Assembly: GCA_045648945.1 (NCBI GenBank)
Contig: JAZROX010000045.1
Coordinates: 26,362-90,361, forward strand
DNA length: 64,000 nucleotides
DNA from: Candidatus Enterousia sp.
Lineage (GTDB): Bacteria; Pseudomonadota; Alphaproteobacteria; Rs-D84
Reading direction: 5' to 3'
Under the pieces are notes generated by a model. That model was not told the DNA's origin. It ran no database searches and saw only the letters and a list, made by a program, of their open reading frames with translations. Shown piece after piece: positions 8,226 through 63,527 of this stretch (its first letter is position 1; the number at the start of each line of letters is the position of its first letter). The position numbers and the translations under genes are program-made.

Positions 8226-8617
8226 TGTTAAAACATGTTTTTGATTTTGGCGACAATAAAAATTTGGCAAGGAACAAACTGTTTGAAGTGGTTTCTAAAG
8301 GTGTTGATTTGTTAGCTAGTGATTATATTAACGAAGAATTGCTGAATTCTTGGAAAAAATATGCAAAAACCGTTCTTGAATTAGTGGATGAAGCGTACGG
8401 AACGCATTATTCGTCAGATTTTTATATATCTGATACGATGCTTGGAAGTAGTTATTTTAGTGCATATTCTTTGCATTTACATGATGTATATAACCACATC
8501 ACTCCGGGATTAAACCCGATACACATCCCATATGGACAATCTCCACAAGATTTTAAAGGAAAATTACAAAGATCTCTGAATGAATTATTAAATATTTTGT
8601 CAAAATTACAGAAATGA
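8225..8617 (+). CDS. Hypothetical protein (island cargo)
   Basis: 130-aa ORF whose start overlaps the stop of the previous ORF (coupling). No recognisable motif. Confidence 0.4.
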   Translation: MLKHVFDFGDNKNLARNKLFEVVSKGVDLLASDYINEELLNSWKKYAKTVLELVDEAYGTHYSSDFYISDTMLGSSYFSAYSLHLHDVYNHITPGLNPIHIPYGQSPQDFKGKLQRSLNELLNILSKLQK

Positions 8618-8632
8618 TATGAAAGTGACATT

Positions 8633-9535
8633 GTGCACTTTTCTTTTATAATTAAAAACGAGCATATATTGTTAAACAAAGAATTTCCTTTACAACACCC
8701 ATTAAAAAACGATGATATAGATACCTTGATGAAAAAGTTAAGGATGATGGTTCGTACCATGGAACAATTTCATCCCCAAGCGACAACAGATAAAGGATTG
8801 ATGGGAATCCATAGTTTAACCGCTGCAATCATATCACTAGCCGCAGAAGCGTATGATGCTTTGCAAAAAAATAGAGTATTTGTAGCATCTTCAATTGCTT
8901 GTCAGATAATAGAACTTTACATACAGTTGTTGTGGTTAGATAAACATTTTTCAACACACGGTGCAGACTATATTGATTTTGGATATGTTGAGCAAATAGA
9001 TATGCTGCGAGTGCATCCAGACCGAAAAGATGAAGTTTTGGCAAAAATAAAGCAAAATAACTGTAAACGTTTTTTGTTAAATAAACCTAAGAATGACAAT
9101 TTGTTGGATAAGCGAAATTACAGACCACATTGGTATCCTGGGACATTAAAGACAATTTCTAATGAGTGTTTTAAAGATATGTGGGACCAAATCAAAAATG
9201 TGCCACAGTTAACTGATTATTATGGTGACATGGATGTAAATTATGAGAACTATCAAATATTTTGTGGATTTAAACATTTTTCGCCGTACATAGTTCGTAA
9301 ATGCTTTGCGACGATGAGCTCCTTTGCAGAGGATGCACCTGAAGATACTAAGTGGATCGCTAGTGTCATTGTCGTTCAGAGTTTGTGTGTTATTTGTGAA
9401 ATAATGGAACAGCATGGAGATCATATTTTCAATTCAAAACCAGTTGCGACAGATGGACTGATGCTATCGTCTATACAAAACTTGATAAACGGTGACAATG
9501 TATTGTATTCTGTGAATTATCAAATAATTATCTGA
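8633..9535 (+). CDS. Hypothetical protein (island cargo)
   Basis: 300-aa ORF with no recognisable motif. The true start may be an internal Met (~8738). Confidence 0.4.
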   Translation: MHFSFIIKNEHILLNKEFPLQHPLKNDDIDTLMKKLRMMVRTMEQFHPQATTDKGLMGIHSLTAAIISLAAEAYDALQKNRVFVASSIACQIIELYIQLLWLDKHFSTHGADYIDFGYVEQIDMLRVHPDRKDEVLAKIKQNNCKRFLLNKPKNDNLLDKRNYRPHWYPGTLKTISNECFKDMWDQIKNVPQLTDYYGDMDVNYENYQIFCGFKHFSPYIVRKCFATMSSFAEDAPEDTKWIASVIVVQSLCVICEIMEQHGDHIFNSKPVATDGLMLSSIQNLINGDNVLYSVNYQIII

Positions 9536-9581
9536 GAATTTTTGTATGAAAAGTATTTAATGAATACTGAATTGTATATTT

Positions 9582-11009
9582 TTAGTTATTAAAAGTTAAA
9601 AGCAGTGAATTGGTAAATATGGTCAGAGTTTTACATGCACGAGTTGCAGCAACATAGAAGTTCTTTTTGTCAAGCAAATGAGCGTCCAATATAATTACAT
9701 TATCAAACTCTAGGCCTTTTGTAAGTAGGGTGCTGCCTATACATTGTTTATGTAAATTTCGTCCTGTTCTGCGTATATGATTTTTATAATCGTACATCGC
9801 ATTACAAATAGAACAGTTAGATACTATAGCATTTTGTAAAACTTTTATTATTGTGTTTAACAATTCGGGTCTTTGATACTTTAGCTTCAATACATCTCGC
9901 ATAAGCTTTATAATGTAAAATAATGATGTTTTACTGATTTTATCGTCGAGCAAGTTATCAACATGTTGTTTTAATTGGTTTGCCTTCTCTTTTTCTTCGA
10001 TTTTTGTTTTCTTTTTCAATCCGTTATTATTGAACCACGTATCAATATCTGTTTTATTGAACAAAAATTGTTCACACGTTTCTTTAAAAAGAGAGAATTG
10101 ACTAGTAGATGTGAGTAACGTGTCTAAGCGTATAGCTAAATTATAAAAATCTGGATCGTCTATGGCTTCTAGCAACTGAAAATGCGATAATGCTAAATTG
10201 TTTCTCAACGATTGTCTTTGCCGTAACATGGAATTTGCAATTATCAAAGTGTTCGGAATTCGTGATAAACGTAAAACTTGGCGTCTATAATTAAGATCGT
10301 TATAAACTGTGCCAGTGACGTGTATAATGTTTATGGCCGGCCAATTTTGCGATAAATCAACATCATTGCCTTGTTCCAAATATTTTCTTAGTGTTTTTAA
10401 AGATTGTCCTAAAATAGGGTTGTTGCCGTTGAGCTCCCATCTCCATGGCTGTTCCAGTGAGCCCGATGCATCAGAAAAATCGTTTAGTTCGCTATCAAAA
10501 TCGACCAAAGGTTCACCAAAATTGAAAATTCCTTGCATTGGGTCCCCCAATAAATGCATAGGTATCGCGTCCTTTAATTGCATAAGCATATTATGCTGAT
10601 TTGCAGTGCAATCTTGATATTCATCAATAAATATCCCTGAGTATGTTTTTTTTATTATATTACGTATCGGCTGCTTAGAAAACAATTCGGCCACCTTAGG
10701 TATGATGTTTTTATAGTATCCATTGGTGTTTTGTTCTGGTACAGATGCAGTAGCAAAGCCCAACACATATTTTTGGGCATATCCACATATCGTTTCTATA
10801 TTATATGCAGAACTGGGGATGCCACATTTTAACAATTTTTCCCTTATTGATGCGATTCCTGCATGAGTATGTGTTAAAATAAGTTGTTTGCCTAAGTTTC
10901 TGTCGTTAGCAAATTTTACGCAATCGGCGATAAAATGGGTTTTGCCATATCCAGCAGGCGCTATAATTTTTGTTTTTATTCCCATTACAAATTGTTCTAT
11001 ATTTACCAT
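9582..11009 (-). CDS. gajB: Gabija GajB, UvrD-like helicase
   Basis: Walker A APAGYGKTHF, UvrD motif II FIDEYQDC and motif VI VAATRA. 475 aa. Immediately downstream of, and coupled to, the OLD-family ATPase gene. Confidence 0.8.
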   Translation of the reverse strand: MVNIEQFVMGIKTKIIAPAGYGKTHFIADCVKFANDRNLGKQLILTHTHAGIASIREKLLKCGIPSSAYNIETICGYAQKYVLGFATASVPEQNTNGYYKNIIPKVAELFSKQPIRNIIKKTYSGIFIDEYQDCTANQHNMLMQLKDAIPMHLLGDPMQGIFNFGEPLVDFDSELNDFSDASGSLEQPWRWELNGNNPILGQSLKTLRKYLEQGNDVDLSQNWPAINIIHVTGTVYNDLNYRRQVLRLSRIPNTLIIANSMLRQRQSLRNNLALSHFQLLEAIDDPDFYNLAIRLDTLLTSTSQFSLFKETCEQFLFNKTDIDTWFNNNGLKKKTKIEEKEKANQLKQHVDNLLDDKISKTSLFYIIKLMRDVLKLKYQRPELLNTIIKVLQNAIVSNCSICNAMYDYKNHIRRTGRNLHKQCIGSTLLTKGLEFDNVIILDAHLLDKKNFYVAATRACKTLTIFTNSLLLTFNN

Positions 11010-25468: not shown

Positions 25469-26710
25469 ATGAATATTTTTTTGGTATTATTGATATCGGT
25501 TTTTATGGCGGGTTACTATATGTTTTTTGGCCCATCCGCCCGTGTCCCGGAACAAGAAACAGATTACGCGATTTCTGTGGCCGACCTGCGATCGGTTGCC
25601 GAATGCGCAATTGCCGCACATAATGCAAAAATTGCGGGTGGGTCATTCGAAGATGTTTGTGTTACACAAAATAAAATCAAAAGTGAATTTATATGTTTGG
25701 ATTCGCGATTTGCAACAACCACATGTGATGCGGGTGGAATCAAACGTCCGAAATACAGTTTTATTATAACAACGACATCGGCGCTGCATTCATCGGATTA
25801 TAACGATATGATGGAAATATTGGAACAAAACTTTTCAACCAGTGGCACACTTGGTATATATCAAGATGGTGTCGTTATCGCCGGTGGAACAACGTCTAAA
25901 CGCACGGTGCCCGAAGCGATTCAGAAAAGTCTGAATTTGGAAAACGGCCAATTGGTTTACATGACGCACTATGATAGTCCGGATCCACAACGTGTCTTTT
26001 CGGGGGGCACATCCGATAATATTACATGCCCGGCCGGAACAACCAAGACATATCGATTTGGCCGATGGCAATGTATTGGATATAATTTAAAGACCAGTTG
26101 CGGCGGCGATACGGTTTGGGATTCTACATTGATGGAATGCGTCCCGGACGAAAGTCGTAAACCATTGTGTTCCGGTGAACAAACCGCCGTCATGGTCGAT
26201 AATGTTTGGGAATGTATAAATCCATTTGGTGAACGCACGTGCCCGAACAGTATGTTGGCCCGATTGAATTATGAAACATTGGAATGGGAATGCGTCGAAG
26301 ACCCAAACAAAATGAAGGCTGCGTCCAAATGTGTCATGGCAAATTCGCGTGTAATTCGCGGGCGCAGTGGTGCAACTTTGCGTTTAATTGCGTCATCATG
26401 CACGGATTGTGAAAAAATGGTTATAAACGAATCAACATGCGAAACGGTCTGTGTTCCCGATGTGGCAAAATTGTCGTTGCCGGGGTGCTATCCGGGGCGT
26501 GCGATGGAATGCACCGGGGCGTCACGCGCGTTCTATTTTGGTTTTCCAAATCGTTCATATGTATCCAACATTGCGGGTTTAAGTCCGTCAGAAGTCCCGT
26601 TTGATTCCGCGCATTCCCAGAATCGTAAATTTAATTGTTTGGATTGCGGAACGGGCACAATAGATAAATCGAAATCGATTTACCCTTATATCGCGGTGTG
26701 CAAAGATTAG
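25469..26710 (+). CDS. Cys-rich secreted/membrane-anchored hypothetical protein
   Basis: N-terminal hydrophobic helix and >20 Cys in repeated CxxG and CxD contexts. 413 aa. No enzymatic motif. Confidence 0.45.
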   Translation: MNIFLVLLISVFMAGYYMFFGPSARVPEQETDYAISVADLRSVAECAIAAHNAKIAGGSFEDVCVTQNKIKSEFICLDSRFATTTCDAGGIKRPKYSFIITTTSALHSSDYNDMMEILEQNFSTSGTLGIYQDGVVIAGGTTSKRTVPEAIQKSLNLENGQLVYMTHYDSPDPQRVFSGGTSDNITCPAGTTKTYRFGRWQCIGYNLKTSCGGDTVWDSTLMECVPDESRKPLCSGEQTAVMVDNVWECINPFGERTCPNSMLARLNYETLEWECVEDPNKMKAASKCVMANSRVIRGRSGATLRLIASSCTDCEKMVINESTCETVCVPDVAKLSLPGCYPGRAMECTGASRAFYFGFPNRSYVSNIAGLSPSEVPFDSAHSQNRKFNCLDCGTGTIDKSKSIYPYIAVCKD

Positions 26711-31906: not shown

Positions 31907-32866
31907 TTAATCATTCGGCATATATACCGGCGCATTTCCCATTGTAAAGAATCGATTTGCAACCGTATCGTACATGCCAATTGCATTATCATGCCGCGCC
32001 GGTACATAGTTATGAATCATAACATCGTTTTCATAAACAGTTATATACGCAATATCACCATCAAAAATAGAATGATTGGCATATTGTGTTGAAAAATCGC
32101 CTATAAACCATACGTATGCACTACTTGACAGCGTTCTGGTACCTGTATATTCAATTCCATTTATGGTTCCGTACATATTATCACGTGTTTTGGTGCGGTC
32201 CAATACATCTTCCATTGTGTACCATACTCCTGTAGTTATCGGAATAAGTTTCGATATATTGCCGCCCGCCGGATAATTCGGTACGGTTATTATATGTGGT
32301 GCCCAATAACCGTCGGCGGACACACCAAAAAACATGCCATTATCTGCACCAAAAATCGAGTTATATTTTGTGGTGGACAGGCTGTTAAACCGAAACTTTG
32401 CTTTGACTTTATATGTTTGCAGTGTTGGATACCAACCGTAATCTACTATCGCGTCTTTGGTTGATATGTGTGACAATGCCGTATATCCCGCGGGCATGTT
32501 TTGTTCCACAACACTGTTGATAGACACCAACCAACAATCCGTCGGGTCATTTGGGTTGTATTTTATACACGTGAATTCTGCGTCAATTGCATCCTGAACC
32601 CCGCTGTTAAAGTCACCGGCGGTGACCAAGGCGTCCGTTTGTTCGGCGTATTCGCCGGTCGAATCGTAAATATTTTTTGTGCCGACCGTGCCCGCGGTGC
32701 CGGTGTTGGTCAAAACCTGGGCTACGCCGTCATTCGCCGGAATTGCGTCTTGCTTTTGTGCGACCGCGGTGTCAACGAATGCCTTGGACGTCGCAACATT
32801 TTCGCCCGCCGCAAACACGTCACCAGCCATAAACCCACAAACCAAAAACGTTAAAATTTTTTTCAT
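31907..32866 (-). CDS. Secreted paralog-family protein A (conserved ~100-aa N-module plus beta-rich C-terminal domain)
   Basis: Signal peptide MKKILTFLVCGFMAGDVFA. N-module GENVATSKAFVD...KQDAIPA...VLTNTGTAGTVGTKNIYDS...CIKYNPNDPTDCWL is shared with the ORFs at 54289, 60209 and 60935. Confidence 0.6.
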   Translation of the reverse strand: MKKILTFLVCGFMAGDVFAAGENVATSKAFVDTAVAQKQDAIPANDGVAQVLTNTGTAGTVGTKNIYDSTGEYAEQTDALVTAGDFNSGVQDAIDAEFTCIKYNPNDPTDCWLVSINSVVEQNMPAGYTALSHISTKDAIVDYGWYPTLQTYKVKAKFRFNSLSTTKYNSIFGADNGMFFGVSADGYWAPHIITVPNYPAGGNISKLIPITTGVWYTMEDVLDRTKTRDNMYGTINGIEYTGTRTLSSSAYVWFIGDFSTQYANHSIFDGDIAYITVYENDVMIHNYVPARHDNAIGMYDTVANRFFTMGNAPVYMPND

Positions 32867-33201
32867 AATTTGCTTCCTTTGATTGAACAAAAATAACCGC
32901 CAAGAATCCTGACGGTCGGGGTGTTAGCAAATCACTCATGTTATTGATTCTGATGACCTTTACATATACGTCACCAGCACCCCGACATACGGGGGACTTT
33001 AATATTGCGGTGCAAAAACACGAAATTCGCAATGGATTACGATGCTTTGCACCGAACATGAGCGGGTCTGCTACGACCCCGAACACAGATTTCCATCTGG
33101 TTCAAGCGCATTGTATTAGAAAAAAATTTTTATGGCAAGTGCAAATTAGATTTTTATTTGCGTTTTGAAAAAAAATACTATATGATGGTGCCACGGTTCC
33201 A

Positions 33202-33295
33202 GGATGGTTGGCAGAGCGGTTGAATGCATCCGACTTGAAATCGGACAAGGTATGAAATAAGACCTTCGGGGGTTCAAATCCCTCACCATCCGCCA
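33202..33295 (+). tRNA. tRNA-Ser (anticodon UGA) with long variable arm
   Basis: Acceptor GGATGGT/ACCATCC, anticodon stem CCGA/TCGG with loop CTTGAAA, long extra arm, T-loop GGTTCAAATCC, discriminator G and encoded CCA. Confidence 0.85.
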
Positions 33296-42270: not shown

Positions 42271-42395
42271 CCTTGCCCCGTTTTTATATAAATCAGGGCT
42301 GTCACATGGCCCTGAATATTTTTTATCTACCCGCTTGACAAACATATTTTTTAGTGTTATATATACCACCAGACAATAACCAAAAGGGGTCTGTA

Positions 42396-43250
42396 ATGAG
42401 AAAGAGTCTGAATCAAGAATTAAGAGAAGCGTTTGTTGCTAATGATGCAGAACGCGTAAAATCTTTGTTGGCCGCTGGTGCTGATAAGAATCGCCGTGTA
42501 AGAAATGAATATCTGTTATGTAATTGCAGTCACAACGAGACAGAAGAAAATATTAAAGTTACAAAAATGCTGCTTGATAATGGTGCAAACCCTAACTGGG
42601 TTGATCCGGATCCGAGTTGGTATGAAACTCCATTGATGGAAAGTTTGTACTATTTTAACTTTAATCTGGCGCAATTATTGATTGATAACGGTGCCAAGGT
42701 TAACATGCACAGCAGTGGTGACACGCCGTTGACATGGTTTGCCGGCCGAACCGATGATGGTCATTTGGCAACTATTAAATTCTTGCATAAAAACGGTGCA
42801 AACCTTGATGCCAAGAATTATAAAGGCCAAACAGCCCTTATGAGAGTTGCTGGATTTGACACTATCATTTCTGCTGATTTGTTTTGCGATAAAACCGATT
42901 GGCTTATTGAACCGATTGAATATTTGTTATCGAAAGGTGCGAAAGTCAACCTGCGTGATAAGGAAGGCAAAACCGCATTGCTGCATTCGTTGGGTCAAGA
43001 TTGGAACAAATATTACAGTTGGAACAATGAAACGGCACTTCAATACAAAGACAACTTTTCGGCGACTTTCTATTATGAAATTCCAACGATATTGTTGTCA
43101 AACGGTGCGCATGTAGGCATAAAAGATAAATCTGGTAAGAATGCCATGAATTATGCGGCGGCGGATGAAGAAAAAATGGACTTGTTCGCACGTGCAATCG
43201 ATGATTCAAACAAATTCTTGCACAGAAAAATCGTTGTTATGTCCAGATAA
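42396..43250 (+). CDS. Ankyrin-repeat protein
   Basis: At least five ANK repeats (LLAAGADKN, LLDNGANPN, LIDNGAKVN, LHKNGANLDAKNYKGQTALM, LLSKGAKVNLRDKEGKTALLH). ATG at 42396 preferred over the track start. Confidence 0.75.
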   Translation: MRKSLNQELREAFVANDAERVKSLLAAGADKNRRVRNEYLLCNCSHNETEENIKVTKMLLDNGANPNWVDPDPSWYETPLMESLYYFNFNLAQLLIDNGAKVNMHSSGDTPLTWFAGRTDDGHLATIKFLHKNGANLDAKNYKGQTALMRVAGFDTIISADLFCDKTDWLIEPIEYLLSKGAKVNLRDKEGKTALLHSLGQDWNKYYSWNNETALQYKDNFSATFYYEIPTILLSNGAHVGIKDKSGKNAMNYAAADEEKMDLFARAIDDSNKFLHRKIVVMSR

Positions 43251-54288: not shown

Positions 54289-55140
54289 TTAATTTACACT
54301 TGGTATAAAATTATTCGGATTATAATAAGGAAAGAAAGTTGTATATGTGGTCACGCCGTCTTCGACAAACATTGGCGCAAAACTAAATCCACTCATATCA
54401 GTATTTGCATCAATGTAAATACGGACATATTTGACAATATAACCCGTTTGGTTGACATAAGTAAAAGTTTGTCGGTTTTCCTTTGTAAAACGCCAACAAT
54501 CAATAAAACCTTTATTTGGGGTAAGCCATGCGAGCGAAACCGTATTCCCGAACCCTCGGCCGCAATTGCCGTCACTAAACCTTTTGTTGTTCCACAAATA
54601 CATCCCGCCCCTACCGCCATAATACACAGATGTTGGAAACTGGTAATCTCTGGTCAATTCAAATTCAAAATAAGTATCTGCGGTGGCAACACCATTGAAC
54701 GAATACATCCCGTTATTTACCGTAACCGTGACACCATTAAGTGTTTTAGTTTGGTTTTCTGGTGCGGGCAGTCGATTTGGACTCGCACTGCGTATTTGTA
54801 CCAGCCAACAATCCGTCGAATCGTTTGGATTCCATGCAATACATTCAAATTCAGTGTCTATGGCGTTTTGCACGGCGGTGTTAAAGTCCCCGGCCGTCAC
54901 CAATGCGTCTGTTTGTGCGGAATACGATGCGTTCGAATCATAAATGTTTTTTGTGCCAACCGCACCGGGTGTTCCGGTGTTTGTCAGTACCTGGGGCGCG
55001 CCATTGTTTGCCGGAATTATGTTTTGTTTTTGTGCCACGCCCGCATCAACAAAGGCCTTGGATGTTGCGACATTTTCACCCGTCGCAAATGCCGCACCAC
55101 ACATTACCGAACAAACAAAAAATGTTAAAAGTTTTCTCAT
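54289..55140 (-). CDS. Secreted paralog-family protein B
   Basis: N-module ~80% identical to protein A (GENVATSKAFVDAGVAQKQNIIPANNGAPQVLTNTGTPGAVGTKNIYDS...CIAWNPNDSTDCWLV) with a divergent C-terminal domain. 283 aa. Confidence 0.6.
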   Translation of the reverse strand: MRKLLTFFVCSVMCGAAFATGENVATSKAFVDAGVAQKQNIIPANNGAPQVLTNTGTPGAVGTKNIYDSNASYSAQTDALVTAGDFNTAVQNAIDTEFECIAWNPNDSTDCWLVQIRSASPNRLPAPENQTKTLNGVTVTVNNGMYSFNGVATADTYFEFELTRDYQFPTSVYYGGRGGMYLWNNKRFSDGNCGRGFGNTVSLAWLTPNKGFIDCWRFTKENRQTFTYVNQTGYIVKYVRIYIDANTDMSGFSFAPMFVEDGVTTYTTFFPYYNPNNFIPSVN

Positions 55141-55469
55141 AATCCCGCCTCCTTGGTGATAATCAAAAAAACCACTGAAGCAACAGTGGTTGGAGGTTCA
55201 AGACAATTTATGTGCAAATTGTGTGCTTATTTTATCGGGAAGCCCGATATTATTCACAACCCTCCAACCCAACGGTTGGAGATTTTTACGTCATAAAGAC
55301 GGCACATAAACACGGGTCTTGACACCCCACCGATGGAACACCCATCGACGTATGAAATTTACCAAGATTTCAAATTTGTTGCAAGACTTATTTGCGCGTT
55401 CGTGAAATTAATTTTGGAATTTTTGCGCGGGACCTTGAATTTGCGGGTTTTGCCGGTTATAATTGCGTT

Positions 55470-59994: not shown

Positions 59995-60106
59995 ATTGCG
60001 ATATCGATTCGTTTTTCGAATCGGTTTTTTTTGCCGATTCGGTGGCGATTTTGGCCTGGTTGACAAATATTTTATTATGAAAGCGCGCTAAGTCATTGAT
60101 ATTTCG

Positions 60107-60125
60107 TTTTTTTTTTTTTTTTTTT
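60107..60125. repeat. Homopolymeric T19 tract (followed by gT7) about 85 bp upstream of paralog-family gene C
   Basis: Read directly in sequence: 19 consecutive T. Confidence 0.9.
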
Positions 60126-60208
60126 GTTTTTTTGCCTTTGACTCGCCGCCGCGATTTTTTCTAAACTTTTAATCAGGGAATGAATAAGCAACAAAGGAGA
60201 AAAATCCC

Positions 60209-60619
60209 ATGAAGAAATCCAAAAATATAATAATTTGTGGCGCAATTGCATCTGTGTGCACGGTTGGTGCATTTGCCGAAAACGAAAACATCGTGACGTC
60301 CAAGGGATATGTGGACAGTGCGGTCGGCACAAAACAAAATACAATACCTGCGGCAGAAACAAACAGCGCCACCCCGGGGACCAGTGTAGTTATGTACACC
60401 GGCACGGCGGGAACAATTGGCGAACGCGCTATATACGACAGTACTACATATACATCCAATGATGCAAATAAATTGGTGACGGCGGCATCGTTAAATGGAA
60501 CGGTAAATAACATACCGACAATAACAACATCTAAATTGACATGTTCGAACAGCCCTGATTGTACACTGTGGGATTTGTCTGACCAGACAGTATTGGGGCA
60601 ACAGCAACAAGGGAATTAA
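60209..60619 (+). CDS. Secreted paralog-family protein C (N-module only, 136 aa)
   Basis: Signal peptide plus ENENIVTSKGYVDSAVGTKQNTIPA...YTGTAGTIGERAIYDS...KLTCSNSPDCTLWDL. Terminates right after the shared module. Confidence 0.55.
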   Translation: MKKSKNIIICGAIASVCTVGAFAENENIVTSKGYVDSAVGTKQNTIPAAETNSATPGTSVVMYTGTAGTIGERAIYDSTTYTSNDANKLVTAASLNGTVNNIPTITTSKLTCSNSPDCTLWDLSDQTVLGQQQQGN

Positions 60620-60630
60620 AATGCTGTGCC

Positions 60631-60885
60631 GTCATCCTGAACTTGGTTCAGGATCCCGTCGATGCCGCCTGATACACGTCATCCCGCCGAAGGGCGGGAC
60701 CCAGTGCGAACGAAGTGAGCACTTGCGTCGCAGACAGTACATGTGTGTCACGCGCATTGCGCGTTCCACATTTCCTGCGGAGCAGTCAACCTTTGCCTAA
60801 GGCTTCGGTTGATGGGTACCGCCCTTCGGCGGTATGACGGGACCGCGACGGAAATGAAGAGATCCTGAAACAAGTTCAGGATGAC
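60631..60885. mobile_element. 255-bp palindromic MITE-like element with 25-bp terminal inverted repeats GTCATCCTGAACTTGGTTCAGGATC / GATCCTGAAACAAGTTCAGGATGAC
   Basis: Nested internal inverted repeats cccgccgaagggcggg / ccgcccttcggcgg. Related fragments occur at about 54190-54235 and 28600-28660. Confidence 0.6.
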
Positions 60886-60934
60886 GTGCAAAAAAGGATG
60901 ACGAAAAAACAATAAACAAAAAAAGGAGAAAGAT

Positions 60935-61864
60935 ATGAAACGAATATTAGCGGGAACGGTGTTGATGGTGATGGCATTACCGTGCTATGGCGCGGGTGAA
61001 AACATACCAACATCGCGTGCGTATGTTGATTCTGCATTAAGCCTGAAACAGGCGAAGTTCCCTGCGGCGAATTCTGGTTTGGGTTCGGGAACCAGTGTTT
61101 TAACATATACCGCGACCAGTGGTACAATTGGTGAACGTGCATTATATACGGACGCGTCCAGTTACGATGCATCGAATGATGCAGATAAATTGATAACTGC
61201 GTCGGCATTAAACGGTGCGGTGACATCATTACAGACAGATACAACAACGAAATTGGTATGTGCGAACCCGGGGACATGCGACCTGTGGAATATTGTTGAC
61301 CAAACGGCCTATGCCGGCGGCAGCAGTTCCGGCGGTGGAACGACGTTGGAACAATGCGTTTTTAGTGGTTTATCGGATTATATGCCTGCACAAGAATATT
61401 ATCGTGACAGCACGTGTTCAAAATTGCTAAACGGTAATTCTGTTGGAAATAGCATTTGCAGTGCAGATGTATTCAATTCATTGTCATACGGTGAATGGGC
61501 GGTTCAATTGGTGGACAAAGAAACAGAAAATACAACCGTTTATGTGCAAGGGACCAGTACTTGTAGTAGCGTAGAGCCGTCCGCCGTGAGTCAGTGGGTG
61601 CTATCGTTCGATCAGAGTCAGCTTCAGCAAGATTATGCATTAAATCTATCCAATGCTCCAACATCCAGTCTAGTAGGTTCGTATTGTCATTGTAAAATTA
61701 CAAATGTGATTGGTACGGGGTGTACCGCACCGTGGGTTTCTTATGATTATGAAGCGTATTACTCAGCAGTCGATTGTGCCGGCAACTGTGCAAATGATTG
61801 TGCGTATCAAGTCTATAACAAGATTAACAACGGCGAAAGTTTGTCCCCGTATCAATATGACTAG
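60935..61864 (+). CDS. Secreted paralog-family protein D (N-module plus Cys-rich C-terminal domain)
   Basis: GENIPTSRAYVDSALSLKQAKFPA...YTATSGTIGERALYTD...KLVCANPGTCDLWNI. The C-terminal 200 aa are unique, with 12 Cys. 309 aa. Confidence 0.6.
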   Translation: MKRILAGTVLMVMALPCYGAGENIPTSRAYVDSALSLKQAKFPAANSGLGSGTSVLTYTATSGTIGERALYTDASSYDASNDADKLITASALNGAVTSLQTDTTTKLVCANPGTCDLWNIVDQTAYAGGSSSGGGTTLEQCVFSGLSDYMPAQEYYRDSTCSKLLNGNSVGNSICSADVFNSLSYGEWAVQLVDKETENTTVYVQGTSTCSSVEPSAVSQWVLSFDQSQLQQDYALNLSNAPTSSLVGSYCHCKITNVIGTGCTAPWVSYDYEAYYSAVDCAGNCANDCAYQVYNKINNGESLSPYQYD

Positions 61865-61926: not shown

Positions 61927-62886
61927 TTACACCACCTCGGTCACGGCGCGTAACGACCCATCGCGCGAAAGTTGTACAACACGAATCTTTTTCTTCATTT
62001 CTTCTATCAATTCGCCACGGTCATATGCCGGTTGAGTATGTAAAATGCGATCTGCAAATGCGGCATACGCGGCATCGGCACTTTCGGCATGAATCGTTGT
62101 ATAGAAATGTTCGTGACCCGTCCCCAGCATTTCCCACATAACCGCCGCATTATCCGTTGATATTTCACCGCCGATTATAACATCCGGCGTCATACGCACA
62201 ACCAAATCCAACAATCGTGCATAGTTAAATTCATTTGTCTGTTCGGTGCGCGACAGTACAAAGTGCACGCGGTTTTTTTGCGGAACGCGGACCTCGCGCG
62301 CGTCTTCAACCGTAATCACGCGACTGTTTTGGTCAATCAGTGTCAACATGTGATTAAGAAAAGTAGTTTTTCCGGTCGCGGTTGCACCACTTATAAGAAT
62401 GGGGCTGCCGTCGTTTATCGCGCTCATCAACCGGTCGTATGGATCGTCGGGACGATTCGTTTCGCGTGGTTTAACCTTCATCAATTTTTCCCCGCGTTTC
62501 AAATGATAGTTTTCAAAAGATGTGTCGGTCACGCCCTCGCCACGAATATTTAACGCCACGCCGCCCGTTACATCGCGTTCGTCATATTGAACATTTGGGC
62601 CGGCAATCGCACTGAACCGATGATTCCCCGGCAATGTTGCATAAACAACCGGCATTCCATGAATCGGGTCAAACGGCCGTTCATATATATTTGCGATGGT
62701 ATGAATCAAATCCACCAAGTATTGTTTGGTAAGTGTCGGCGCATCATACGCAACCCACGGCACGCGTGCACCATGCAGACGCATCCAAACCTCGCCTTCG
62801 TGGTTTATTGCGATTTCTTCCACAAAAGACGGTCGGTAAAATTCCGACAATGGTTTCAGTAAAGATTCCAGTACAACATTTGTCAT
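61927..62886 (-). CDS. VirB11/TrbB-family type IV secretion ATPase (orphan)
   Basis: Walker A GATATGKTT, VirB11-type His box, and GGEISTDNAAVMWEMLGTGH. 319 aa. Confidence 0.7.
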   Translation of the reverse strand: MTNVVLESLLKPLSEFYRPSFVEEIAINHEGEVWMRLHGARVPWVAYDAPTLTKQYLVDLIHTIANIYERPFDPIHGMPVVYATLPGNHRFSAIAGPNVQYDERDVTGGVALNIRGEGVTDTSFENYHLKRGEKLMKVKPRETNRPDDPYDRLMSAINDGSPILISGATATGKTTFLNHMLTLIDQNSRVITVEDAREVRVPQKNRVHFVLSRTEQTNEFNYARLLDLVVRMTPDVIIGGEISTDNAAVMWEMLGTGHEHFYTTIHAESADAAYAAFADRILHTQPAYDRGELIEEMKKKIRVVQLSRDGSLRAVTEVV

Positions 62887-62966: not shown

Positions 62967-63527
62967 ATGAAGAAAATATTTTTAACAATCTTTTGTTTAA
63001 CCTTGGCCCTGGCGGGGTGCAGCCACGATGACCGGCCGTACAATGCCGAAGATTTTGCAAACGGTGGTGATGACGCACCATATTATAATGAACGGACCAG
63101 TACGTTTATGCAGGCCGATAATGACTATGCCGGAATTGATTCTTATCGTCCAAAATCCGATTTAGAAAAGGAAGAAATAAATAAACGTTGGACAACTTCG
63201 CGTATGGAAACCCGTTGGCAGGAATACAAGGGAACGATGATTCGGGTTCAAATACTTTTGGGAAATACCGATTTGCGTGAAATGCGCCTGCGTTTGATAC
63301 AAAATGCCGATGGTATGGATATTGATGGCGATATTCGCACCGTTTTGGGCAAGGTTGCAGATTATGAAATGAAACGTGTGTGTGGCCGTAATGCCGATAG
63401 CATTGTTTTGGTTTATGATAAACCTTCGTTTGAAACAATGCGGCCATCACCGTTCTTTGATTATAGGATAGAGGCCGATGGCGCGACAATGCGCGAATAC
63501 GGTTTCCGTTGCGTTTACAACAAATAA
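62967..63527 (+). CDS. Hypothetical lipoprotein
   Basis: Lipobox LALAGC after the signal peptide. 186 aa. Confidence 0.5.
   Translation: MKKIFLTIFCLTLALAGCSHDDRPYNAEDFANGGDDAPYYNERTSTFMQADNDYAGIDSYRPKSDLEKEEINKRWTTSRMETRWQEYKGTMIRVQILLGNTDLREMRLRLIQNADGMDIDGDIRTVLGKVADYEMKRVCGRNADSIVLVYDKPSFETMRPSPFFDYRIEADGATMREYGFRCVYNK

Follow-up and report, generated by a model that had tools for sequence, protein, structure and literature searches.

The 64,000-nucleotide stretch of DNA analysed here (the window; positions 26,362 to 90,361 of the forward strand of contig JAZROX010000045.1, GenBank assembly GCA_045648945.1, Candidatus Enterousia sp.; G+C content 40.6%) contains four genes, A to D, which by sequence belong to a lineage-specific multigene family of modular, disulfide-containing proteins with Sec-type signal peptides, found in the reduced-genome alphaproteobacterial order Rs-D84. 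Each protein consists of a signal peptide, a module of about 100 residues that is shared by the whole family and, in three of the four, a C-terminal domain referred to as the tip. We infer, with a probability of about 0.55, that A to D function as adhesin-like binding proteins that are secreted or exposed at the surface, diversified by recombination, and individually regulated. The four genes are:

31907-32866, minus strand: gene A, 319 amino acids; signal peptide and module (residues 1-116) at 32519-32866, tip at 31907-32518
54289-55140, minus strand: gene B, 283 amino acids; module (residues 1-116) at 54793-55140, followed by a 167-residue aromatic-rich tip
60209-60619, plus strand: gene C, 136 amino acids; signal peptide and module only, mature protein encoded from 60278, Q/G/N tail
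60935-61864, plus strand: gene D, 309 amino acids; signal peptide and module (residues 1-135) at 60935-61339, tip at 61340-61864

An earlier note on this DNA had described four open reading frames (ORFs) with a signal peptide and a module at these positions; all four are intact, and each is preceded by a good ribosome-binding site (an AAGGAG-like Shine-Dalgarno sequence). A tblastn comparison of each protein with the window returns exactly four copies, with expect values (E) of 1e-54 between A and B, 1e-29 to 1e-32 between C and D, and 1e-13 to 1e-17 across the pairs; the similarity of the four copies is far above chance level. All four signal peptides have a basic n-region, a hydrophobic h-region and an A-x-A-like c-region, with the cleavage contexts VFA/AGEN, AFA/TGEN, AFA/ENEN and CYG/AGEN, and a simple heuristic recognises the same layout in 246 of 261 family proteins. 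The module identities proposed at first, about 80% for A/B and about 60% for C/D, captured the relationships but not the values: over the mature module, A and B are 75% identical, C and D 54%, and A or B share 40-42% with C or D. Likewise, 'four-member family' is correct for the window but not overall, since hundreds of members occur elsewhere.

Beyond the module, the proteins are unrelated, as the earlier note had also stated. Tip-against-tip BLASTP gives E>4, and when B and D were each aligned by hhalign with a 34-sequence A-type alignment, only residues 1-134/139 aligned. The tip types described (aromatic-rich, Cys-rich or none) agree with the lengths and compositions observed: the A tip has 203 residues, 15% of them aromatic, and no Cys; the B tip has 167 residues, 19% aromatic, and two Cys; C ends in an 11-residue Q/G/N tail in place of a tip; and the D tip is the Cys-rich one.

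How such an arrangement may arise can be seen by comparison with a sister strain. The metagenome ERZ27256916 holds close relatives of both C and D. Its D-like gene (locus L040, protein P0131; L numbers denote loci with family genes outside the window, P numbers denote family proteins, and the window plus the loci amount to 601 kb) is 95.5% identical in DNA sequence over 60846-61338, which covers the 5' untranslated region and the whole module. After about 61300-61340, identity falls from 90-98% to about 45-53%, the level of unrelated sequence. In the protein, the module part is 96.9% identical and the tip 29.7%. The breakpoint, at about 61338, coincides with the module-tip junction; on this alignment, the tip has been replaced wholesale between the two strains by recombination at that junction.

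The opposite end of a gene can change as well. Between C and its orthologue P0002 (L038/L039), the mature protein is 97.3% identical, and the signal peptide (60209-60277 in the window, 1597-1659 in L038) only 33%. The upstream regions and contexts also differ, with a poly-T promoter after PriA in the window and a leader RNA after PlsX at L038/L039. As signal peptide and upstream region differ while mature C is kept at about 97%, a 5' cassette of control region plus signal peptide is exchanged too. In the case of A, it is the tip that is kept at least as well as the module: relative to P0123-P0126, which lie in different genomic neighbourhoods, tips are 63-69% and modules 56-63% identical. Together with the conserved module and replaced tip of D, this points to separate histories for modules and tips. 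The term 'hypervariable', applied to the C-termini in the earlier note, is therefore less apt, because orthologous tips are conserved like the module; what stands is a conserved module with unrelated tips, and, as far as the alignments tell, 'cassette replacement' or 'domain shuffling' is the better description.

Each module contains one pair of Cys residues (C100/C111 in A and B, C112/C118 in C, C109/C115 in D). An AlphaFold2 model of C (predicted local distance difference test score 71.6, predicted template-modelling score, pTM, 0.32) shows a helix, a hairpin, a second helix and a disulfide hairpin, and the secondary structure of the module is consistent between two independent runs. On these models, the module is a conserved unit of helix, beta-hairpin, helix and disulfide-clamped beta-hairpin. 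The ratio of nonsynonymous to synonymous substitution rates (dN/dS) in the module is 0.06 between C and its L039 orthologue and 0.07 between D and L040; these two pairs were used for the comparison, as the homologues nearest to A (P0124) and to C (P0002) sit in other genomic contexts. Such values indicate strong purifying selection on the module and functional genes, and the possibility, raised in the earlier note, that the ORFs might be pseudogenes is not borne out.

Two size groups dominate the 261 retrieved family proteins. About one third (89) have 120-160 residues and consist, like C, of the module and an N/G/S/Q-rich tail; this module-only type is the commonest form of the family, with most homologues at 130-150 residues. 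The second large group has 250-350 residues. In a few long members, the module itself is reiterated in part. P0184 (1004 residues) has 10 module-matching stretches and ends with a Cys..Cys-LW hairpin, P0163 has three tandem 27-residue units (RGIYDGSTTYxSSxDSDKLITAGAVEPVIS), and P0181 and P0053 likewise carry reiterated partial modules. The tandem partial modules of P0184, P0163 and P0181 suggest a stalk or assembly unit; since such units are reiterated, the stalk may be fibrous, and the low pTM of the monomer fits with this.

Two of the tips can be characterised further:

31907-32518, minus strand: A tip, predicted concanavalin-A-like/LamG beta-sandwich, the commonest tip type in the family
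61340-61864, plus strand: D tip, Cys-rich, 187 residues, 10 Cys; the breakpoint at about 61338 lies at its 5' edge

The predicted fold of the A tip is a two-sheet beta-sandwich (jelly-roll) that can be superimposed on LamG, pentraxin or carbohydrate-binding module domains, while Pfam (Laminin_G and others) gave no match to it at E up to 1. A homologue search with this tip alone found six close orthologues only; within the family, A-type tips are combined with both module subtypes. The corresponding search with the B tip matched B itself only. The D tip is a genuine Cys-rich domain, as the earlier note had it, conserved across relatives: eight Cys and two Trp are invariant across 10 divergent relatives. 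Short Cys-rich, knottin-like tails occur on other family members. The extreme C-termini show a recurrent pattern of their own. In 56 of the 261 proteins, with otherwise different tips, the chain ends in Y/F-[LIMV]-P-x(1-5), for example NLYLPSGN, GTYMPQNQ, VYMPND in A (31907-31927) and NFIPSVN in B (54289-54309), and D-type tips often end in ..R.AVFG.Q. These shared endings may be sorting, docking or capping motifs.

The family is large and taxonomically narrow. A word-indexed search with the module profile gave 147 clusters at 90% identity; an exhaustive hidden Markov model search with the module, covering 1.84 billion representatives, gave 676 clusters at 50% identity, of which 108 scored below 1e-30. 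It has been seen only in uncultured gut and rumen Alphaproteobacteria of the order Rs-D84 (Ca. Enterousia and relatives): all named sources of module homologues are uncultured 'Alphaproteobacteria bacterium' or Ca. Enterousia metagenome-assembled genomes (MAGs), and in the species-level genome collection 32 of 32 loci come from rumen or gut MAGs (RUG and RGIG series), Candidatus Enterousia, or assembly WRCC01000001.1 (isolate Lab288P3bin109). Single genomes carry many copies; within the fetched loci, there are 13 in RUG14636, eight in RUG585 and seven in RGIG3338, so that the first of these has at least 13. The ParC encoded in the window is 94-99% identical to proteins from many samples, the named ones being Alphaproteobacteria MAGs, and the organism must therefore be common. 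In contrast to ParC, A, B, C and D each represent 90%-identity clusters of just one or two sequences among 15 billion proteins.

Genomes of order Rs-D84 measure about 1 Mb or less and lack flagella, the tricarboxylic acid cycle, respiration and standard uptake transporters; an obligately symbiotic or parasitic lifestyle has been proposed (PMC12306168). These bacteria, including Ca. Enterousia, are common across the guts of ruminants, horses, chickens, humans and termites and are thought to live off other cells, yet there is no information on the way in which they recognise a partner or attach to it (PMC12306168).

Regulation appears to be specific to individual genes. Genes A and B are preceded by two different structured leaders:

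32889-33104, minus strand: structured 5' leader of A, about 215 nucleotides; hairpin P1, a long closing helix around three hairpins, and an intrinsic terminator at 32917-32889
55165-55350, minus strand: structured leader of B, unlike that of A; hairpin plus T-run at 55191-55165, 15 nucleotides before the ribosome-binding site

With nhmmer, 21 distinct copies of the A leader were found (that of A and 20 others) in more than 10 genomes, every one immediately upstream of a family gene; the other loci include L002, L005, L008, L012-L015, L017, L021, L022, L027, L030, L035 and L038. Independent minimum-free-energy folds of 19 of these sequences have the same shape, with a hairpin and U-run that end 22 nucleotides before the ATG. 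For the 58 pairs of the structure, 90.7% of alignment cells are paired, as against 36-49% after a shift of the partners by 1-3 columns. Compensatory double changes occur in 27 pairs, and the covariation observed was not reached in any of 500 shuffles. The invariant segment GUCGGGGUG (32986-32978) can pair with the equally invariant CACCCCGAC (32923-32915), which overlaps the 5' arm of the terminator. This candidate antiterminator pairing shows a compensatory double change in L013 (GUCGGGGAG/CUCCCCGAC) and one wobble-compatible change in L005b. Since the pairing overlaps the terminator arm, a choice between terminator and (possible) antiterminator can be envisaged. Rfam 15 (4227 families) gave no match to the A leader at E up to 1. 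On this comparative evidence, the leader is a strong candidate for an attenuator of a new kind, either riboswitch-like or dependent on a factor, that serves this family alone.

The B leader contains repeated CTCCAACC segments that could form alternative pairings, and it, too, has no Rfam match. Its one homologue (L024 3817-4003, from a Ca. Enterousia MAG) shows compensatory changes in the stem and lies ahead of a group of genes for other small secreted proteins; with two copies, a structured element is weakly supported. Two observations concern the surroundings of these leaders. Upstream of a family-gene leader in L035, a 1.2-kb non-coding stretch (8539-9760) contains three direct repeats of about 60-70 nucleotides (including ATCATATTGGTnTTATATTATGTnnnGTTATAGTGGGCTT), and a tRNA with a long variable arm (33202-33292, plus strand; Rfam tRNA, 57 bits) lies about 100 nucleotides beyond the 5' end of the A leader.

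Gene C has candidate control elements of another kind. The relevant elements upstream and downstream of it are:

60090-60106, plus strand: conserved box AAGTCATTGAnAnTTCG, directly 5' of the poly-T tract of C
60107-60125, plus strand: poly-T tract (T19), 83 nucleotides before the ATG of C and 12 nucleotides upstream of the predicted -35 element
60138-60167, plus strand: predicted sigma-70-like promoter of C from a consensus scan (TTGACT, 18-nucleotide spacer, TAAACT)
60630-60886, no strand assigned: GC-rich near-palindromic element between C and D, with 74-nucleotide arms that are 80% complementary

At four other loci, L018 (5257-5291), L029 (9902-9938), L033 (4827-4862) and L034 (minus strand), the box AAGTCATTGAnAnTTCG is likewise followed by a T18-20 tract upstream of a family gene, and equivalent promoter hexamers come after the tract in L018 and L029. 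Such tracts are otherwise rare. Homopolymers of at least 9 nucleotides occur only twice in the 64-kb window, the T19 tract being one of them; throughout the 601 kb there are only three of at least 12 nucleotides, all of them T18-20 upstream of family genes in the same arrangement, and a metagenome scan with the box found two further T tracts, again both upstream of family genes. One promoter, otherwise identical, has T18 in L018 and T19 in L034, which come from different samples; the T19-20 tracts of L029, L033 and the window belong to different promoters. By analogy, the layout is that of a contingency (phase-variable) promoter, and the tract is a candidate for either a slippage-prone expression switch or an UP-like element.

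The RNA of the C-D palindrome is predicted to fold with -150.5 kcal/mol (z -9.8) and to contain hairpins of the type GTCATCC...GGATGAC. Relatives lie beside family genes in four other assemblies (L020 3-143 and 9356-9541, L028 171-326, L022 10546-10619, and L038 2002-2167, the last representing L038/L039), and this GC-rich palindromic repeat was seen solely in such positions; Rfam has no match to it. It could be a MITE- or REP-like repeat (miniature inverted-repeat transposable element or repetitive extragenic palindrome), a hairpin between the cistrons that fixes the ratio of C to D, or a landmark for recombination.

The gene order of C and D, in which a short gene for the module alone comes before a long one with a tip, is found again at nine or more other loci in several genomes (L006, L010, L016, L017, L019, L020, L021, L023 and L025), and the long gene often has a D-type tip. 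Other family genes are dispersed among housekeeping genes.

Taken together, a mechanism can be proposed in which the proteins leave the cytoplasm via Sec and build an extracellular structure, probably oligomeric and fibrous, with the module as its stalk or assembly part. The tips would bind ligands on partner or host cells, glycans in the case of the lectin-like tip. In pairs of the C+D type, the tip-less protein would be the abundant structural subunit and the tipped one a minor subunit. Recombination and gene-by-gene switching would then alter what the bacterium binds or exposes, so that the family would constitute a set of variable, individually switchable adhesins of an obligately partner-dependent bacterium. 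The most elaborate form of this proposal is a new type of Sec-dependent fibre with a novel stalk module, tip-less major and tipped minor subunits, and lectin, Cys-rich or knottin tips that are shuffled at the junction and track partner or host, the whole being switched by a new riboswitch-like RNA and slippage-prone T tracts; in this full form the idea is tentative, and distinctly less probable than the general reading as adhesin-like proteins.

This picture is complicated by several points that weigh against it. Neither an outer-membrane anchor or beta-barrel nor a lipobox or sorting signal can be recognised in the proteins, which could be periplasmic or freely secreted. No conserved export or assembly partner was found beside the family genes, scattered as they are among housekeeping genes. 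The change in tract length amounts to one single-base case (T18/T19 in two assemblies) and could be an assembly error. Finally, the loci were chosen through their family genes, which inflates associations, although 10-20 kb were scanned per locus.

The earlier note had likened the layout to adhesins, pilus tip proteins and receptor-binding fibres, and had been unable to assign the module to a known family. The second statement stands. Searches of Pfam, NCBIfam and PHROGs with A to D gave nothing significant (the best PHROGs hit being a marginal E of 0.096 on B); nor did Pfam with 98 aligned members and the long, repeat-rich relatives, or PDB sequence searches with module profiles, and phage collections are equally devoid of matches. 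A lipobox of the form [LVI][ASTVI][GAS]C is absent, since the Cys residues in signal peptides stand in the contexts FLVC-G, IIIC-G and ALPC-Y; nor are these Cys conserved in the consensus. For trimeric autotransporters, Pfam matches to the YadA-type beta-barrel anchor or to head or stalk motifs are lacking in short, long and repeat-rich members, and the chains end in tips or short tails. Of the comparisons, the conserved module with unrelated tips is confirmed, whereas membership of the pilins or of the phage fibres is not.

Pili nonetheless provide the best of the rival explanations, if an unlikely one. The family could comprise accessory subunits or substrates of a type IVb-pilus-like system or a VirB-type type IV secretion system (T4SS), with the module docking to the pilus or co-assembling with it, in the manner of a minor pilin or tip adhesin, and the tips conferring target specificity. 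TcpF and CofJ, Sec-dependent factors that are secreted through type IVb pili, supply a pattern for such substrates, and the C-terminal disulfide loop of the module recalls the D-region of pilins. There is also some support from gene neighbourhoods. A gene for a VirB11-like ATPase is convergent to D. In L006 (2235-4954, 14060-18740) and L010 (763-3482, 13960-18649), VirB3/VirB4-like genes and an R64-type pilus set are present, the family pair being about 5 kb from the former and about 3-6 kb from PAP_PilO, T2SSE ATPase and T2SSF platform genes; in L012 (131-2840), the same ATPase and platform lie about 7 kb from a family gene. On this evidence, VirB and R64-type pilus systems are possible candidates for the export route, but no link between them and the family emerged. 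Yet no pilin gene was seen in these three clusters, the VirB11-like neighbour is absent from the 32 other loci, and most family genes stand amid housekeeping genes. The N-termini argue in the same direction. The consensus of 98 sequences is a classical Sec signal ending in PAFA, followed by polar TSKxYVD (in A to D, polar GENxxTSK follows the signal directly, rather than a pilin-type hydrophobic segment); it has none of the marks of a class III (prepilin) signal, namely a conserved Gly-1, Glu+5 and a hydrophobic mature N-terminus of about 20 residues. In the four proteins and the 98 members, there is no Pfam match to VirB2/TrbC or VirB5, and no Pfam or NCBIfam match to N_methyl or other pilin N-terminal models. 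The candidate identity of type IV pilin was rejected on the N-terminal sequence.

Slightly less probable again is that the proteins are secreted effectors or toxins of a polymorphic-toxin-like kind, in which an N-terminal trafficking domain delivers diverse C-terminal effectors to competitors or a eukaryotic host. Variable C-termini behind a conserved N-terminus and the swapping of tips by recombination would both be expected; the small Cys-rich tails are knottin-like (P0053 against Dickkopf_N, E 5e-4, below cutoff), and the presence of T4SS parts and of an ankyrin-repeat protein in the genome would fit an interaction with eukaryotes. Against this, a toxin or enzyme domain was found in no member, the commonest tip is a predicted lectin or binding fold, the commonest form of the protein is tip-less, the loci inspected contain no conserved small downstream 'immunity' ORFs, and export relies on Sec signal peptides, with no trafficking domain of the T5, T6 or T7 kind. 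A role as structural proteins of the periplasm or envelope that take no part in cell-cell binding, for instance as scaffolds or as nutrient-scavenging binders in place of transporters, ranks a little lower still. Sec signals and disulfides suit the periplasm and the exterior equally, and in bacteria without standard uptake transporters (PMC12306168) lectin-like binders could capture nutrients; but strain-level tip replacement, at least 13 paralogues in a genome of about 1 Mb, and homopolymer promoter tracts are hallmarks of exposed proteins selected for diversity, and multi-repeat members of up to 1004 residues suggest extended fibres. The idea of domesticated or prophage-borne phage tail fibres or receptor-binding proteins is largely refuted and very improbable. 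It draws on the classical layout of such proteins, a conserved N-terminus and a swappable C-terminal domain with breakpoints at the junction, and on the frequency of concanavalin-A-like domains among them. But the family has Sec signal peptides, no phage genes flank the copies and loci inspected, and PHROGs offered only the marginal hit on B; tblastn of C, the 1004-residue relative and three tips found no match in 50,697 phage genomes, and IMG/VR (2.9 million contigs) contains no relative. A BFVD fold search gave generic concanavalin-A-like domains only, and phage origin was rejected along with these results.

Adhesin-like binding proteins thus remain the preferred reading, and the family indeed resembles known variable-tip binding systems, while failing the defining membership tests of each one compared. 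Like the PilV adhesins of the R64 (IncI1) thin pilus, it has a constant N-terminus and alternative C-terminal tips whose diversity is generated by DNA recombination; the PilV tips set partner specificity, and Rs-D84 genomes encode R64-type PAP_PilO, T2SSE ATPase and T2SSF platform proteins. PilV itself, as a type IV prepilin, has a signal of class III, and a single locus, the shufflon, switches its tips through inversions that Rci mediates. In contrast, the present family has classical Sec signals, many separate genes and replacement between strains, and neither shufflon repeats nor a recombinase were seen beside its genes. The variable lipoproteins of Mycoplasma (Vlp of M. hyorhinis) share the setting of a reduced-genome, partner-dependent bacterium, the multigene organisation, a conserved 5' end with a variable remainder, and a long homopolymer in the promoter region that is a candidate switch for phase variation. 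In Vlps, which are lipoproteins, the variable part is made of tandem repeats and the homopolymer sits between -35 and -10; the present proteins lack a lipobox and have globular domains as tips, and the T tract is upstream of -35. The modular minor pilins PilB and PilC of Streptococcus sanguinis (PDB 7oa8) differ in having a prepilin signal, a pilin fold and type IV pilus assembly, the defining N-terminal features of which the module lacks. With phage receptor-binding proteins and tail fibres, the family shares a conserved N-terminal shaft, exchanged C-terminal binding domains and sharp mosaic breakpoints, and short repeat shafts and concanavalin-A-like tips are possible in both; it differs in its signal peptides, its chromosomal housekeeping context and the lack of PHROG, sequence or viral-contig relatives. 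Lastly, the A leader is like terminator/antiterminator riboswitches in its multi-helix junction, abundant covariation and a terminator 5' arm that can pair with an upstream invariant segment, but unlike known riboswitches it matches no Rfam family and serves a single family of secreted proteins, not a metabolic pathway.

The libraries searched contain no description of either the module or the leader RNA. The module stands for an unannotated protein family of 676 clusters at 50% identity and merits a family definition. As a new structured RNA, the leader of about 215 nucleotides is well supported; it would be unusual, if true, for surface-protein genes to have a riboswitch-like element of their own. 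Given Sec-type signals, tip swapping, a regulatory RNA of its own, homopolymer promoters, and a notable share of a small genome, the family is the most obvious candidate for the interface with the partner, and it offers a handle for finding the partner of a widespread uncultured gut lineage.

The remaining features of the window are of lesser importance for this argument. Neighbours of the family genes include anaerobic ribonucleotide reductase activase (identified by sequence), GAPDH, MiaA and PriA. The ATPase gene next to D is:

61927-62886, minus strand: VirB11-like ATPase, convergent to D; TIGR02788, E 2.5e-45, full length, below the curated cutoff

Its linkage to family genes was considered as a conserved feature and rejected, there being no such neighbour in any of the 32 other loci. 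It is followed by an ORF for a 186-residue lipoprotein-like protein (62967-63527). The ankyrin-repeat protein is encoded at 42354-43250 (plus strand) and, in NCBIfam, weakly matches models of Legionella Dot/Icm Ank effectors (E about 1e-10, which falls far short of the cutoffs); the resemblance hints at interaction with a eukaryotic partner.

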